A DNA stretch of 64,000 bases, from NCBI GenBank assembly GCA_028695415.1, contig JAQVIY010000002.1, positions 4,883 through 68,882 of the forward strand, in the 5' to 3' direction. Below the pieces are notes generated by a model. It saw only the letters and a program-made list of their open reading frames with translations, was not told where the DNA came from and made no database searches. A program made the translations under genes and the position numbers. Of the stretch, positions 46,760 through 64,000 are shown piece after piece. Position 1 is the first letter of the stretch; every line of letters begins with the position of its first letter. Origin of the DNA: Minisyncoccota bacterium. Lineage in GTDB: Bacteria > Patescibacteriota > Minisyncoccia > Phycocordibacterales > Phycocordibacteraceae.

Positions 46760-47727
46760 GTTCCTCCTCCAAAACCGCCCCCTTTCTAGAGGGGGCGGTT
46801 TTGTGTTGACAGGGATTTCTGCGTACCCTATACTCCTTCTACGTGTCTACGAACCGAAAACTTTCTTACTTAGGAGCGGATAGGCCGTAAGGCCGCGCGC
46901 GTTGCAAAACGCACGAAAACCGCCCCGAGGGGCGGTTTTCGTTTCAAAAAGGGACACGGGAATCTTTGACATACGAATACGCATAGGTAATTGAAAGCTC
47001 CGTGGCTCACCGCTACGGAGCATCAAAGTGCAGATAGTAATGGTTGTGGTAACCAGAATTCCGTGCGAGAGACAGTAAGAGTACACGGTGGATGCCTTGG
47101 CCTAGGACGGCGAAGAAGGACGCGACTAACCTGCGATAAGCTTCGGGGAGGCGGTTTGTAGCCTTTGATCCGGAGATGTCCGAATGGGGAAACCCTACAG
47201 TTTTGAACTGTAATCCGCGGGGTAACGCCCGCGCGAAGCGAACCCTGGGAAGTGAAACATCTCAGTACCAGGAGGAAAAGAGAACAATATGAATTGCGTT
47301 CTCTTCAAGCATTATGTTTGTTTGAAGGGAACGCGATTCTCGTGATACCCCGAGTAGCGGCGAGCGAAAAGGGAAAAGCCCAAACCCGCACACTCACTTT
47401 GCCATTGTGCCTAACGTTGTTCAGAAGAATCAACTTCTGGACGCGCGTGGCCCAATGGAACGTTTGAGTATCAACTACGTCAGTTGGCACAAGAACAACG
47501 ATGGCAAAGTGAGTGTGCGGGGGTTGTAAGATGCGAACATTCCGATTTATCGGTAAAGAGTTATCAATCGTCTATATAGCGGAAGCTGCTGGGAAGCAGC
47601 GCCCCAGAGGGTAATGGCCCCGTACGCGAAATGTATGACGACTCTTGTTTGTATTCTTGAGTAGTTCGAGACACGAGTAGCTCGAATGAATCTGCCGGAA
47701 CTAACCGGTAAGGCTAAACACGTCCTA

Positions 47728-47774
<47 letters not shown>

Positions 47775-49389
47775 GAGAGGGGAGTGAAATAGAACTGAAA
47801 CCGTGTACTTACAAGGGGTCGGAGCGGTGCACCATACAGCACTTGTGCTGTCTCGTGCTTGATTAAGCAGGGCGAAACTTGATAAGGACTTAGATTTGGG
47901 CGTGCGTACGGACAACAAACTCCATACGCAGTAAGCCAGGCGTTGAGCCGTCTAAGATAACTGTCAGGTGCCCTCCTTAATCATGTACGAGTGTTGTATG
48001 GTGCACCGTGACGGCATGCCTATTGAAGAATGAGCCGGCGAGTGTATATATCTTGCGTAGCTAAGTCCTTACGGGGCGGAGCTTAAGGGAAACCGAGCGT
48101 GAATAGCGCGATTGTAGGATATATACGACCCGAAGCCAGATGAGCTTGCCATGAGCAGGGTGAAGTTTGTCGAAAGACAGATGGAGGCCCGAACCCGTTG
48201 GTCGTACAACGCCTTGGGATGACTTGTGGCAAGGAGTGAAAAGCTAATCGAATCTGGGAATAGCTGGTTCTCTCCGAAACAGCTTTTGGGCTGGCGTCGC
48301 CATATGTGTGCATGGGGGTAGAGCACTGGAAGGGATCAACAGGGAGAAATCTCGTGATTCCTATCAAACTCCGAATACCATGTACCCGGGCGGCAGTTAG
48401 AAGGTGGGGGCGAAGCTCCATCGATCGAGAGGGGAAGAGCCCTGATCGCAAATTAAGGCCCCTAAATCAACGCTCAGTACATCCACAAGGAAGTGAGGAC
48501 TCATAGACAGTGAGGATGTTGGCTTAGAAGCAGCCACCATTCAAAGAAAGCGTAACAGCTCACTCATCGAGAGTCCTTGCGCCGAAGATGATCGGGGTTA
48601 AGCGTTGTGCCGAAATTGCGGGTTTGTGTTTATTCCGATAAATACAAGCGGTAGGAGAGTGTTCTGTTCGCGATGAAGCTTAAGGGGTAACCCGTGGTGG
48701 AGCGTACAGAAGTAAGAATGCCGGTACAAGTAACCACAACGCGGGTGAGAACCCCGCGCGTCGAAAGATCAAGGTTTCCTCAGCTATGGTGATCAACTGA
48801 GGGTTAGTCGGGCCTAAGGGGATGGCGAGAGCCGCACCCGATGGACACAGGGTTAATATTCCCTGACCGTTTTTAGAGGCTATGGAGTGACGGACTGCTG
48901 TATGTGCTGCCCATTATTGGATTTGGGTCGGCTTGGTGAGGAAGCGCGTTAGGCAAATCCGGCGCGCATTATTCCGAGCTGAGTCGCAATTTCCTCCTAC
49001 GGGGGGAGAGAGGGTGCAAAGCGCGGTTCCAAGAAAATCTTCTACGCATCAACTCTAAAGATGACCGTACCGTAAACCGACACAGGTGATCAGGTCGAGC
49101 AGACCAAGACGAACGAGTAAGAGGTCCTCAAGGAACTCGGCAAACAAGCGGCCGTAAGTTAGCGATAAGGCCTGCCTCCTGCCTGCAAGGGCGGGAGGCC
49201 GCAGCGAAAGTTTTCCTATCAACTGTTTACCAAAAACACAGCTCCCTGCAAACTCGTAAGAGGAAGTATAGGGGGTGACACCTGACCAATGCCGGAAGGT
49301 TAACCACGGTGGGTGGTATGTCGCAAGATGTACTGCTGGACTGTGTAAGCCCCGGTGAATGTCGGCGATAACTATAATCGTCCTAAGGT

Positions 49390-49902
49390 TCCGGGCGCGA
49401 CGAGAGTCGTGCTCGGAAGGACTAGGACGATTGTAGCGGTAAACATACACAAGCTGCCTTGCTGCGCAGTAATGCGCGGATTAGTCCACATGGCTATATG
49501 CTGGGAAGCGCGGAAGCGCGATCAGCAGGGAAGATTCGTGAACTTCACAGAGGAGAATAATCCTCAAAGATATAAGTTGGGTTGGTGTAATAATCAATCA
49601 AAGAGACAGGCATAGACAGCGAGGAGGTGGGCTTAAGAGCAGCCACCCTTTGAAGAGAGCGTTATAGCTCACTCGTCGAGTCGGTCAGACGTGGTTGATA
49701 GCATAAGAAGACATTTGGCCTTGCCTGCGTGCAAGGGACAACCAGTGCCTTCAAGACGTCGGACCAGTTTCGACACCCATCTTATACCCTAGGGAATGAC
49801 TACATTCCCTCTTCTGTGAAGTTCACGAAAACCCTCAGAGACCAAACGCCATACTCCTATTCGTAGGAGCAAGATAGAGTCCAAAGGTTGAAAGGAACCT
49901 AG
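49390..49902 (+). mobile_element. 23S insertion 1: ORF-less group I-like intron after the position equivalent to E. coli U1931 (helix 69/71 region)
   Basis: 5' exon ends CCTAAGGT (U). Insertion ends ...CCTAG (G). Exon resumes AGCGTAATTCCTTGTCGGG. Contains a roughly 20-bp long-range inverted repeat (49536-49557 with 49810-49830) and a roughly 75-nt segment near-identical to 23S 48510-48585. Confidence 0.6.
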
Positions 49903-50810
49903 AGCGTAATTCCTTGTCGGGTAAGTTCCGACGTGCACGAATGGTGTAATGAGTGGGAAACTGTCTCGAGGACTCGCTCGGTGAAAATGCACTTCCGGTG
50001 AAGATGCCGGATACCTGTAGTTAGACGAAAAGACCCCAGGAGCTTTACTATAGCTTCGTATTGGCACTGCGGGATTCATGCGTAGCATAGGTGGGAGGAT
50101 TTGAAGCATTGGTTTCGGCTGGTGTGGATCCGTCAGTGAAATACCACTCTTGAATTTTGCAGTGTCTAACCCCGTGAGCGTAACTCACGGGGGACCGTGC
50201 GTGGCAGGTAGTTTTGGTGGGGCGCTATCCTCCTAAAAAGTAACGGAGGAGTCTATTAAGGTTCTCTAGGCGCGAATGGAAACCGTGCCGATAGTGTAAT
50301 GGCATAAGAGAGCTTAACTGTAAGGGGTACATCCCGAGCAGATGCGAAAGCAGAGCATAGTGAACCGATGGTACGCCTTAGATGCGGCCAGAGATTAACG
50401 GATATAAGTTACCCTGGGGATAACAGGCTAGTTCCGCCCAAGCGTCCATAGCGACGGCGGAGTTCGGCACCTCGATGTCGGCTCACCTTAGCGCGGGGCT
50501 GGAGAAGGTCCCAAGCGTATGGCTGTTCGCCATTTAAAAAGGTACGCGAGCTGGGTTCAAACCGTTCAGCAACTGACTTCGGTCGGTGATTGAACGGTTT
50601 GAACCCCGAGGCAAATGTTAGCTACGTGGAGACGTAGTGTGAATAAACGACAACTCACGGCGGTCTCGACTAGGAATAGTCGAGAAGCAAATCAACTGAT
50701 ATCGGTGGAACCCAGCCCCAGTTTTAAAATGCATAAAACTGGAGCTGGGCAATACCGAGGGAATTTGTCTTATGTGCTTCATTGAGGAATGTTCTTTGAG
50801 AATGTATTGC

Positions 50811-50887
50811 GGAGAAGTCGCCAAGCGGTTAAGGCACCAGACTTTCAAATCTGGCATGCGAAGGTTCGAACCCTTCCTTCTCCTCCA
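50811..50887 (+). ncRNA. tRNA-Gln-like element with 8-nt anticodon loop (CTTTCAAA) and encoded CCA, nested in 23S intron 2 inside a 19-bp inverted repeat
   Basis: Acceptor GGAGAAG/CTTCTCC, D arm GCCAAGCGGTTAAGGC (as in bacterial tRNA-Gln), anticodon stem CCAGA/TCTGG, variable CATGC, T arm GAAGG-TTCGAAC-CCTTC, discriminator T plus CCA. Flanked by CTTATGTGCTTCATTGAGGA (50769-50788) and its complement (50914-50932). Confidence 0.5.
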
Positions 50888-51104
50888 TACATTTTCTGGC
50901 AACTTAGGTTGCCTCCTCAATGAAGCACATAAACGAAGCCCGTAGAGACTGAATGTTGATCATCCCGCCCCACTTTTGTCATTAGGACAGAGGCGGGGAG
51001 GGCTCACATAATTAGATGTACCTCGTTATTCCAATGACGGCGGTGTATCAAAAGTGGAGCTGGATGGTGTTACAGTCCGATCCCGCCAGTAATGGCGGCG
51101 TTAT

Positions 51105-51140
51105 TGGGCAGCTAGAGCCTAAAGCCTAGTGCCCAATAGC
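51105..51140. repeat. CTAG-rich repeat (copy 3) near the 3' end of 23S intron 2
   Basis: GCTAGAGCCTAAAGCCTAGTGCCCAATAGC shares GCCTAAAGCCTAG with the blocks at about 32022 and 35556. Confidence 0.45.
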
Positions 51141-51212
51141 TACGTAATGCGTGAGACAGGTTGGTCTCCTATCTACTACAGGCGTTGATTCTTGAGGGGG
51201 GTTGTCCCTAGT

Positions 51213-52068
51213 AAAATATTGCTACTTCAGAGAGAGATCTCTGATGACAACGCTGCTTATAACGGTGGAGTCTAAGGCGCTTCTGGTTTTAGAGGTCGAT
51301 ATCCGACGGTCCAGTGGATATTGACCTCGCTTGAGGACCAGAATGACGCTATGATAATACCGTGGGAAGTCGATTAAGTATTACCAATGCAGATCTCGCG
51401 TATATCGCGGGCTTCTTGGATGGAGATGGAAGTCTCATGTTCCAATTAAAGAAGCGCGCAGATTCGACCAAAGGAGTGCGTTTTATGGCGACGATATGTC
51501 TTTATCAAGATACTCGCCATGATGCGCCGCTCTCGTGGATTCGAACGCGACTCAAATGCGGCTATGTTTCTAAACGGAACGATGGCATGACAGAATTACG
51601 CATCAATGGCTTCTCTCAAGTGAGGGAGACCGTAGAAGCGCTTCTGCCGTATCTTCGTTTCAAGAAGAAACAAGCAAGACTACTCATTCGGGCATGTAAA
51701 TTGCTCGAACAAGAGACGCTCCGCACCATGAAGTCGAGAGATATACGAAAGATTGTTGATTTGCTGTTGCTCATACAGAATGAAAACTATATGAGCAAAA
51801 AGCGAAAGACGAAAGAAGAACTGCATCACATGCTTGGTTTGACCCCGTAACGACTTACGTTGAAAGATACGTGGACTCATAGGTAGAGGAATCGTTCCGC
51901 AGGCAGCTCGCTAACGCGACTGCACTTGGATTTTCTAAAGCGGAGTACCGCTAAGAAAATCTCGGCGAGAACGACAGCTCCTATGGGTAAGATGCAGCCA
52001 TCCTAACTTCGCACAGGCGGAAAAGGATGAAGATATAGTCTGAGCTCCTGGAAACAGGGGAAGTATCG
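51213..52068 (+). mobile_element. 23S insertion 3: group I intron carrying a LAGLIDADG homing endonuclease ORF, inserted on the 5' side of the sarcin-ricin loop (E. coli about 2656/2657)
   Basis: Joining exons gives CCCTAGT|ACGAGAGGACCGG, matching CCTAGTACGAGAGGACCGG. Intron ends in G. Conserved group I S-element AAGATATAGTC at 52030-52040. Confidence 0.7.
51362..51850 (+). CDS. single-motif LAGLIDADG homing endonuclease (I-CreI-like size, 162 aa) encoded within 23S intron 3
   Basis: LAYIAGFLDGDGSLMF motif. About 160 aa, typical of homodimeric LAGLIDADG enzymes. AT-rich compared with the rRNA exons. Confidence 0.75.
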   Translation: MGSRLSITNADLAYIAGFLDGDGSLMFQLKKRADSTKGVRFMATICLYQDTRHDAPLSWIRTRLKCGYVSKRNDGMTELRINGFSQVRETVEALLPYLRFKKKQARLLIRACKLLEQETLRTMKSRDIRKIVDLLLLIQNENYMSKKRKTKEELHHMLGLTP

Positions 52069-52420
52069 ACGAGAGGACCGGGATGAACTGACCTCTGGTC
52101 TATCGGCTGTCGCGCCAGCGGCACCGCCGAGTAGCTATGTCGGGTGCCGATAACCGCTGAAAGCATATAAGCGGGAAACGGGCCCCAAGATTAGGAATCG
52201 TTATGAGACTCGTAGGAGATGACTACGTTGATAGGCTCTAGATGGAAGCGCAGTAATGCGTTGAGTCGAGGAGTACTAATATGTCCAGTCTCTCGTGCGG
52301 AACTCTGTCTAACACAATCGTTCTGTTTGCGTTTTGATAATTACCTATGCGTTTCGTAGTCACCGACCCTACGTCGCTCGCTTCGCGAGCTATGAAGGGT
52401 AAAAACACTTTCGAGTGTTC

Positions 52421-52539
52421 GGTTCTGGTGGTTCGGCGGCGGGGTCATACCCGTTCTCATTCCGAACACGGCAGTCAAGCCCGCTAGCGGCGATGGTACT
52501 CATCGTTTCAGATGGGGAGAGTAGCTAACCGCCAGAACC
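52421..52539 (+). rRNA. rrf: 5S ribosomal RNA
   Basis: Terminal helix GGTTCTGGTGG / CCGCCAGAACC. Internal CCGAACACGGCAGTCAAGCCC and AGATGGGGAGAGTAGC. Confidence 0.8.
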
Positions 52540-52735: not shown

Positions 52736-52840
52736 CGGGGTGTAGCTTAGGTAAGTTAAGTGCGGCAAGCACTCTGTCCTGGGTGACAACGTCCGGGAGC
52801 TGTACAGAGGACGCAGGTTCGAATCCTGTCACCCCGACCA
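52736..52840 (+). ncRNA. atypical tRNA-like gene (about 102 nt plus encoded CCA) followed by an intrinsic terminator
   Basis: 7-bp acceptor CGGGGTG/CACCCCG, discriminator A, CCA, canonical T arm GCAGG-TTCGAAT-CCTGT. About 27 extra nt relative to class I tRNAs. A possible CTG (Gln) anticodon-loop parse needs an enlarged D loop and a 21-nt insert. Terminator GCACGCCGCGC-TTGC-GCGCGGCGTTTT at 52842-52868. Confidence 0.45.
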
Positions 52841-63047: not shown

Positions 63048-63284
63048 TGTTCCATCTTGTGGGTGACCCGTCAGAATTGACGGGTCACATTTTGTTTTAG
63101 GGTCTATTGACGCCCTTTCGACCTTCCTATACTATGGCCTTACTGTCCCCCTATGGGGGACGGGGTGTTTCTTTGACATCAAAATACGTGAATGCCCGCC
63201 ACGGAGGTGGCGGGCGAAAAGCCCCGACGTTACAGTCGGGGTAAAAGATGTGTGAATTCTTTTGTTCCGCCTATTCTTATTGAG

Positions 63285-64000
63285 AGTTTGATCCTAGCTC
63301 AGGGTGAATGCTGGCGGCGTGGATAAGTCATGCAAGTCAAGGGGGCCCGCAAGGGCAACCGGCAGACGAGGTAGTAACACGTAGGTAGATCCCCCGAAGT
63401 CGGGCATAGCCAGTCGAAAGACTGGGTAATTCCCGATAGTCTCCTTCTTCGCTGTGTATTTCATCACAGCTACGAAGGACGCAGCCGCAAGGCCGTGTCC
63501 TCCGAAGCTCGGAATGGAATGTAGAGCGAAGGAGGAGTAAAGGTTTTTCGCTTCGGGAGTCGCCTGCGCAGTATCAGCTAGTTGGTAGGGTAACGGCCTA
63601 CCAAGGCTACGACGCTTAGGGGAGCTGAGAGGCTGACCCCCACCGATGGAACTGCGACACGGTCCATACTCCTACGGGAGGCTGCAGACGAGAATATTCC
63701 GCAATGGACGAAAGTCTGACGGAGCGACGCCGCGTGATGGATGAAGTGCCTTGGTACGTAAACATCTTTTATCGGGGACGAAGTTTATTGACGGTACCCG
63801 ATGAATAAGGAGCTCCTAACTCTGTGCCAGCAGGAGCGGTAATACAGAGGCTCCAAGCATTACCCGGAATCACTGGGCGTAAAGGGTGTCTAGGCGGCCA
63901 TATTAGTCTTTCGTTAAATCTGCGGGCTCAACCTGCAGGCTGCGAGGGAAACGGTATGGCTCGAGGGCGTGAGAGGTGCACGGAACTCATGGTGGAGGGG
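63285..64000 (+). rRNA. rrs: 16S ribosomal RNA, 5' part (continues beyond the window)
   Basis: AGAGTTTGATCCTAGCTCAG at 63285, ACTCCTACGGGAGGCTGCAG, GTGCCAGCAGGAGCGGTAATAC (mismatch to universal 515F GTGCCAGCMGCCGCGGTAA), GGGCGTAAAGGG. Confidence 0.9.

Follow-up and report, generated by a model that had tools for sequence, protein, structure and literature searches.

A group I intron with a LAGLIDADG homing endonuclease gene interrupts the 23S sarcin-ricin loop in a Kaiserbacteria-like bacterium

What kind of element interrupts a 23S rRNA gene inside the sarcin-ricin loop (SRL)? The question is raised by a stretch of 64,000 nucleotides (nt), hereafter the window, from contig JAQVIY010000002.1 of a Minisyncoccota bacterium (assembly GCA_028695415.1). 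An initial annotation, made from the letters alone, had placed an 856-nt intron between the equivalents of Escherichia coli U2656 and A2657, and a different intron, devoid of an open reading frame (ORF), at position 2593. Our data confirm that the SRL insert is a genuine group I intron, that it carries a homing endonuclease gene and that it resides in the 23S rRNA gene of a Kaiserbacteria-like organism. It is very probably a mobile intron at U2656/A2657, belonging to the catalogued class 23IS14 (see below), in a host from the candidate phyla radiation (CPR).

The bacterial 23S rRNA gene begins at 47063 on the forward strand (Rfam and blastn against E. coli rrlH) and is the single such gene seen within the window; a 5S gene follows at 52424–52537, and the 16S gene, from 63276, is unlinked to the 23S. 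Alignment of the 3′ half with E. coli (positions in E. coli numbering are prefixed Ec) is interrupted at three points: Ec1931/1932 (49390–49902), Ec2593/2594 (50566–51149) and Ec2656/2657 (51213–52068). Between the first two and beyond the last, blastn against rrlH aligns Ec1932–2593 with 49903–50565 and Ec2657–2869 with 52069–52265. All three inserts are missing from L102, a metagenome contig of a close relative, whose 23S sequence is 92–98% identical to the window exons per block and colinear with them, the breaks falling between 49389 and 49903, 50565 and 51150, and 51212/3 and 52069. The two comparisons bear out the position that had been proposed for the SRL intron, and the separate intron at 2593 is likewise found.

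The insert of interest is flanked by ...CCCTAGT and ACGAGAGGACC. Comparison of DNA alone leaves an ambiguity of 1 nt, because the intron and the 3′ exon both begin with A; the rules for group I introns (U at −1, terminal G) resolve the junction to U2656/A2657. This is four nt 5′ of the ricin adenine A2660, inside the SRL (helix 95, H95).

51213–52068, forward strand: the group I intron in full (856 nt), inserted between Ec U2656 and A2657 and ending in the omega G, G52068.
52069–52082, forward strand: 3′ exon ACGAGAGGACCGGG, Ec2657 onward, including the GAGA tetraloop with the ricin and sarcin sites.

The nearest relatives of the host are metagenome-assembled genomes labelled Kaiserbacteria, Paceibacterota or Minisyncoccota, which place it among the Patescibacteria (CPR) as a Kaiserbacteria-like bacterium. 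Given at least five insertions in this gene as against the intron-free L102, and odd private inserts in three of its introns, one might ask whether the rRNA gene is a decaying, non-functional copy in which intron and private inserts alike are junk. This is extremely improbable: the exons are 91–98% identical to those of relatives and score 2008 bits on the bacterial large subunit (LSU) model, and the SRL, the peptidyl transferase centre region and the GTPase-associated centre are intact. Moreover, CPR genomes normally contain one rRNA copy, with up to 16 insertions per gene, according to Tsurumaki, Sato, Saito and Kanai (2024, J Bacteriol; PMC11270868).

If the insert is a group I intron then its RNA should fold as one. 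With the ORF removed, 50 distinct homologous sequences without large inserts were aligned and helices P1–P9 placed by hand. RNAalifold on all 71 ORF-deleted sequences had returned a bloated alignment of 956 columns and a partial structure, hence the reduction of the set to 50. The elements of the window intron are these:

51209–51224, forward strand: P1, exon UAGU (51209–51212, Ec2653–2656) with internal guide GCUA (51221–51224).
51228–51243, forward strand: P2 hairpin CAGAGA/UCUCUG with a GNRA-type loop; 6/6 pairs kept in all 50 sequences.
51252–51363, forward strand: 5′ strand of P3 (51252–51256) and the P4–P5 domain.
51262–51267 with 51358–51363, forward strand: P4, conserved.
51270–51272 with 51353–51355 (P5), 51283–51288 with 51335–51341 (P5b) and 51298–51322 (P5c hairpin), forward strand: partial covariation.
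51367–51856, forward strand: span of P6, AAGUCG (51367–51372) with CGACUU (51851–51856); 44–49 of 50 paired.
51857–51872, forward strand: P6a, a small hairpin after P6; 12–21 double changes per pair.
51874–51877, forward strand: 5′ strand of P7, GACU, at the start of 51874–51985.
51878–51883 with 51980–51985, forward strand: P7.1, between P7 and P3′; 9–20 double changes per pair.
51893–51897 with 51969–51973, forward strand: P7.2, between P7 and P3′; 0–16 double changes per pair.
51994–52068, forward strand: 3′ core, with P3′ GCAGC (51994–51998) and P8 (51999–52004 with 52024–52029).
52030–52040, forward strand: J8/7 and P7′, AAGAUAUAGUC, in the 3′ core.
52042–52043 with 52066–52067 (P9.0) and 52045–52060 (P9, CUCCUG-GAAA-CAGGGG), forward strand: P8, P9.0 and P9 covary.

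In the 50 distinct sequences, 90.9% of the cells in the 76 proposed pairs are paired and 47 of the 76 pairs show compensatory double changes. The maxima from 300 column shuffles were 79.2% paired and 41 pairs, and sliding the partners by one to three columns gave 34–47% paired. Many compensatory double changes are found in P2, P3, P6a, P7.1, P7.2, P8, P9.0 and P9; P4, P6 and P7 are conserved but not covarying, and P1 is invariant. P2, for example, has 17–30 double changes per pair in its middle four pairs (8 and 1 in the outer two), while P3 reads GCUGC/GCAGC in the window and GCGGC/GCCGC or AUGGC/GCCAU in other sequences. The P3-P4-P5-P6-P7-P8-P9 core with its P3/P7 pseudoknot is present and supported by covariation. 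The S element noted near the 3′ end by the initial annotation stands at 52030–52040 (AAGATATAGTC).

U51212 and G51221 form a wobble pair at the 5′ splice site, and all four P1 pairs, including this U·G, are invariant in 50/50 distinct homologues. A terminal G (G52068 in the window) is found in all 76 listed homologous introns, and the P9.0 pairs, which position the 3′ end, covary. Extra helices P7.1 and P7.2 between the 5′ strand of P7 and P3′ are the hallmark of subgroup IA in the Michel-Westhof scheme; the P7.1/P7.2 hairpin of the window intron (51878–51985) covaries and occupies exactly this position. The architecture is therefore IA-like, with the ORF in L6.

These features bear on whether the insert might be an intervening sequence (IVS), cut out by RNase III-type processing without religation and leaving the 23S rRNA fragmented in the SRL. 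A break in the SRL backbone a few nt from the junction, the alpha-sarcin cut, inactivates ribosomes, which speaks against this reading. IVSs resemble the window insert in being extra 23S sequence absent from the mature ribosome, but they are short stem-loops at sites of the helix-25 or helix-45 type, unligated and without a catalytic core, whereas the insert is 856 nt long, is located in H95 and combines a covarying group I core with a U·G splice site and an endonuclease gene. It bears every sequence and structural hallmark of group I and is without the simple long bracketing stem of IVSs. Fragmenting IVSs are known in bacterial 23S rRNA and probably exist in CPR, although the known IVS sites are in the 5′ half of the gene (23IS2 and 23IS4; PMC11270868). 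We thus consider removal without religation very improbable, and a group I intron remains the preferred reading.

What, then, does the intron encode?

51362–51850, forward strand: homing endonuclease ORF, GTG start, 162 amino acids (aa), one LAGLIDADG motif LAYIAGFLDGDGS.

Loop L6 consists almost entirely of the ORF. The 3′ strand of P4 takes in two bases of the start codon, codons 2–4 (GGA AGU CGA) are the 5′ strand of P6, and the 3′ strand of P6 starts directly after the stop codon. This overlap of the ORF ends with P4 and P6 accounts for the conservation of the GTG-GSR beginning and of the ending LGLTP-stop in nearly all homologues; the GTG start and MGSR N-terminus are kept in almost all of them. 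The product is predicted to be a single-motif LAGLIDADG endonuclease of the I-CreI class. Pfam reports LAGLIDADG_1 (E = 5.7e-9, 37.2 bits against a cut-off of 23.1) as a single domain covering residues 15–105, and phmmer matches in the PDB are chains of I-MsoI, I-CvuI and I-CreI. An AlphaFold model (predicted local distance difference test 89; predicted template modelling score 0.83) has an alpha-beta-beta-alpha-beta-beta-alpha fold. With this model, Foldseek gives template modelling (TM) scores of 0.82–0.83 to I-CvuI, I-MsoI and I-CreI at identities of 22–29%, and a root-mean-square deviation of 2.2–2.4 Å to I-CvuI and I-CreI. This agrees with the class proposed by the initial annotation. D22, Q49 and K101 align with D20, Q47 and K98 of I-CreI and are invariant in 19 homologues. 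Against nine relatives the ratio of nonsynonymous to synonymous substitution rates (dN/dS) is 0.07–0.14, that is, the ORF is under purifying selection, which argues that the protein is functional. No identical 162-aa protein was found in the gene-position index.

To define the distribution of the element a protein search was performed, which yielded more than 2,100 relatives of the endonuclease; at least 513 stretches in a one-genome-per-species collection encode one. The comparative set comprised the best 80 of these at least 513 loci together with four syntenic metagenome loci. In every kept locus ACGAGAGGACCG lies 130–250 nt after the ORF. The junction ...TAGT/A...G/ACGAGAGGACC recurs in all 76 automatically parsed loci (72 distinct) from other genomes, and was found by eye in locus L064, which automatic parsing had skipped. 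That 76 loci should share this junction together with covarying helices is far beyond chance. The ORF is full length in all 76, with no degenerate copy among them.

Intron-less alleles were sought by scanning metagenome contigs for an uninterrupted junction after the clade-specific 5′ exon (TTCTTGMGGRGGGTYGTCCCTAGT-ACGAGAGGACCGGG). In the 48 contigs returned, the 3′ kilobase of the 23S gene is mostly 85–97% identical to the window, which is the same range as for intron-bearing relatives. Some of them, L131 and L122 for example, keep the 1931 and 2593 introns and are without the SRL intron. Presence and absence among such close relatives means that gain or loss of the SRL intron occurs over short evolutionary distances, which is the behaviour expected of a homing element. 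The Paceibacteria-type CPR lineages throughout have the SRL, the longest of the universally conserved rRNA sequences, as a site of homing.

The contig of L064 (CAZQSS010000004.1) is labelled 'uncultured Gammaproteobacteria'. It carries the same SRL intron and endonuclease, and its 23S sequence is only ~72% identical to that of E. coli. Misbinning is a more probable reason for this label than a true occurrence of the intron beyond the Patescibacteria.

Together the above analyses suggest how the element could be maintained. The 23S precursor would be transcribed together with the intron, and pairing of the guide GCUA with exon UAGU would form P1 on the 5′ strand of the SRL, with the U·G wobble at the splice site. 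The P3–P9 core would bind guanosine, and two transesterifications would release the intron and rejoin the SRL, with G52068 marking the 3′ splice site and ...CCCUAGU-ACGAGAGG... as the predicted ligated exon product. Meanwhile the 162-aa protein encoded in L6 would, as a homodimer, cut intron-less 23S rDNA around ...CCCTAGT^ACGAGAGGACC..., and repair would copy the intron in (homing). The putative intron-less target is contained in GGTTGTCCCTAGTACGAGAGGACCGGGATGAA; insertion would destroy it, so that the host gene would be immune.

Several observations weigh against parts of this scheme. Although not obligatory, a P10 helix is common in group I introns. By inspection of the window and of the 5′ ends of homologues, no complement of the 3′ exon start ACGAG was found upstream of GCUA in the P1 loop. 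The Rfam model Intron_gpI (RF00028) scores 29.2 bits against a gathering score of 50 (E = 6e-5 in a 2.2-kb search), with only the 3′ core aligned (51922–52061); the 489-nt ORF and a 70-nt module in the P7.2 loop may account for this by breaking up the model. The best pseudo-palindromic 22-bp target near the insertion site has 5/11 symmetric positions, a value matched by 12.6% of random window centres. Palindromy not above chance is weak for a homodimeric enzyme, although symmetry is often loose in the natural sites of enzymes of this kind. Splicing and ligation, whether in vivo or as self-splicing, are predictions, as are cleavage activity and the exact cleavage site. Cleavage of the intron-less allele by a homodimer is likewise predicted; the CPR survey assayed a single enzyme, I-ShaI from 23IS7, and none from 2657 (PMC11270868).

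The 3′ exon could be held in another way. The P5c loop GGUCC is mostly conserved (51/71 sequences, with GAGGACC in 69/71; loop variants are AGUCC, GAUCC and GGUCU), and it might hold the invariant 3′ exon GGACC in place of the missing P10. Because exon GGACC is invariant, covariation cannot test this pairing. Both it and the idea that a conserved intron motif, CUUGAGGACC, mimics the 3′ strand of the SRL were considered and are kept as speculation only.

It is also conceivable that the RNA no longer self-splices and that the LAGLIDADG protein persists chiefly as a maturase, for its help in splicing, and less for cutting DNA. Such a role would fit the strong purifying selection on the ORF and the full length of every one of the 76 parsed copies, the latter being unexpected under a cycle of gain, decay and loss; but the equivalents of the catalytic Asp, Gln and Lys, which pure maturases often lose, are invariant. 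Similarly, the lack of an evident P10 and a start codon embedded in P4/P6, linking the protein to RNA folding, point towards a cofactor, whereas the RNA core looks complete and covaries. Finally, intron-less alleles in equally close relatives imply that gain and loss continue, for which an active endonuclease is required. LAGLIDADG maturases are established, and the possibility is raised in the CPR survey (PMC11270868). On balance we regard a protein retained chiefly for splicing as unlikely, and favour a mobile intron with a homing endonuclease.

Is an intron at this position new? The initial annotation suspected that it was not among the commonly listed LSU sites and proposed comparison with catalogued ones. 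That comparison overturns the suggestion: in the survey of 348 CPR 23S genes, which defines 14 frequent insertion sites, position 2657 is the frequent site 23IS14, a known position with a group I intron and the same endonuclease family, LAGLIDADG_1 (PMC11270868). In that survey group I introns occur at 23IS6–14, with LAGLIDADG_1 predominantly encoded at 1917, 1931, 1952, 2593, 2604 and 2657, and its introduction notes, after Brown et al., that transcripts lose such insertions (PMC11270868). The window insert agrees with the definition of 23IS14 on each count (CPR 23S, 2656/2657, group I-like, LAGLIDADG_1), sharing gene, coordinate, intron class, single-domain Pfam family and host radiation; nothing essential differs from what the paper describes (PMC11270868), and the window copy adds the 70-nt module in the P7.2 loop. 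The SRL intron is thus real but already known, as the catalogued class 23IS14. A literature search on group I insertion in the SRL, including the L2656/L2657 naming, returned nothing relevant. As the initial annotation pointed out, ribosome function does require accurate splicing, but this is not special to this site, since it holds for every group I intron in a conserved rRNA centre.

The value of the present case is mainly confirmatory, being one more example of a catalogued class. Secondary structure, splice-site pairing and an enzyme test for the 2657 site do not feature in the available text of the survey (PMC11270868). Detail beyond that text comprises the exact U2656/A2657 junction and the P1 pairing with the 5′ strand of the SRL; the IA-like layout, in which L6 holds the ORF and P4/P6 the start codon; the strong purifying selection on the enzyme; and the variable presence of the intron among 23S genes that are nearly identical. 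The predicted enzyme would represent a new meganuclease specificity, with a target in essentially all cellular genomes.

Among characterised systems the Cr.LSU intron of the Chlamydomonas chloroplast 23S gene, with I-CreI, and the related I-MsoI and I-CvuI are the obvious comparison. Like the window element they combine a group I intron in the conserved 3′ region of 23S with a single-motif LAGLIDADG protein of ~160 aa (the known ones are homodimers), and they are the best matches to the predicted structure. As here, the ORF of the Cr.LSU intron lies in a peripheral loop. They differ in location (2593, as against 2656/2657), in DNA target, in sequence (22–29% identity) and in residing in organelles rather than Patescibacteria; the characterised structural relatives of the window enzyme all target 2593 and not the SRL. 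The window's own 2593 site, unlike that of Chlamydomonas, is occupied by an unrelated, ORF-less intron. In Ca. Shapirobacteria, the group I intron at 23IS7 likewise interrupts a CPR 23S gene and encodes a single-domain LAGLIDADG_1 enzyme, I-ShaI, and I-ShaI is the only such CPR enzyme shown to cut its own insertion site and to dimerise (PMC11270868). By analogy it is the best experimental proxy for the behaviour of the window enzyme, although site and target differ and I-ShaI is described as closest to I-CeuI rather than to I-CreI or I-MsoI (PMC11270868).

The module that sets the window copy apart is a compact structure in its own right.

51898–51968, forward strand: two-hairpin module of ~70 nt within the P7.2 loop, with a folding energy of −30.3 kcal/mol (z = −2.7).

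It is absent from this position in the SRL introns of 11 aligned relatives, and among the SRL introns examined only the window copy has it there. Copies sought by blastn and with a covariance model were found in the 2593 introns of L002 (5621–5697), L009 (2350–2426 and 2505–2581) and L088 (6738–6812, reverse strand), in another part of the SRL intron of L009 (2898–2973) and, in diverged form, in the 23S-5S spacer of L099 (612–685). A 52-nt stretch is 100% identical between the window and L002, a sister species. Between other copies both hairpins show compensatory changes, and the orientation is always that of the rRNA; retention of the hairpins through compensatory changes argues for a function at the RNA level. 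Searches of Rfam with the module gave nothing at E ≤ 0.01 except the edge of the group I match. It is possible, if somewhat doubtful, that the module is an undescribed portable RNA element of Kaiserbacteria-like genomes that colonises only the discarded parts of the rRNA transcript, namely the spacer between 23S and 5S and the loops at the periphery of various group I introns. As to what it might do, a processing or decay signal, or a protein-binding handle, would be a guess.

The other two introns of the window also hold private inserts. That of the 2593 intron (50566–51149) lies in the region 50770–50945, where a 19-bp perfect inverted repeat (TTATGTGCTTCATTGAGGA / TCCTCAATGAAGCACATAA) encloses a tRNA-like sequence (50813–50888) with a near-perfect cloverleaf. 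The Rfam tRNA model gives this sequence 58.4 bits; its anticodon loop, CUUUCAAA, has 8 nt (anticodon UCA or UUCA), and CCA is encoded after it. Scanning 36 related loci for tRNAs found no counterpart, and comparison with the tRNA(UCA) of L098 showed the two to be unrelated. The 1931 intron (49390–49902) is ~320 nt longer than those of relatives (~190 nt) and contains, at 49608–49684, a diverged second copy of 23S helices 42–44 (Ec1040–1116), which correspond to the GTPase-associated centre with its uL11 site. The diverged copy shows 83% identity both to E. coli (E = 1e-17) and to the canonical copy of the window at 48502–48571; no other locus contains such a duplicate. The tRNA(UCA)-like gene and the copy of the uL11-binding domain are hints that intron loops in Kaiserbacteria-like genomes serve as landing pads for structured RNAs.

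The 5′ boundary of the 2593 intron (50546–50605) has a further peculiarity: exon and first intron bases (GGTTCAAACCGT/TCA, the slash marking the boundary) pair perfectly over 15 bp with TGAACGGTTTGAACC. This P1-like helix is unusually long, is without a U·G at the presumed splice site and is conserved in L002, L015 and L131.

Compared with L102 and E. coli, the 5′ half of the 23S gene contains more inserts, of about +117 nt (47387–47518), about +168 nt (47828–48005, near Ec540–553) and about 54 nt (near 47288–47340). None has an ORF or a group I signal, and they may be expansions of the IVS type.

As to the arrangement of the rRNA genes, the 16S gene (63276–64000 in the window) starts ~10.7 kb downstream of the 5S gene on the same strand, with protein-coding ORFs following the 23S-5S unit (47063–52537). 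Downstream of the 5S gene lies a 102-nt tRNA-like sequence (52736–52837; 39.9 bits on the Rfam tRNA model, no call by ARAGORN), in which the acceptor and T arms are normal, the D-loop region is enlarged by 16 nt and the anticodon arm is replaced by 32 nt. The extra sequence is too short for a group I intron. The counterpart downstream of the 5S gene in L002 is an ordinary tRNA-Met(CAU) at 7252–7328.

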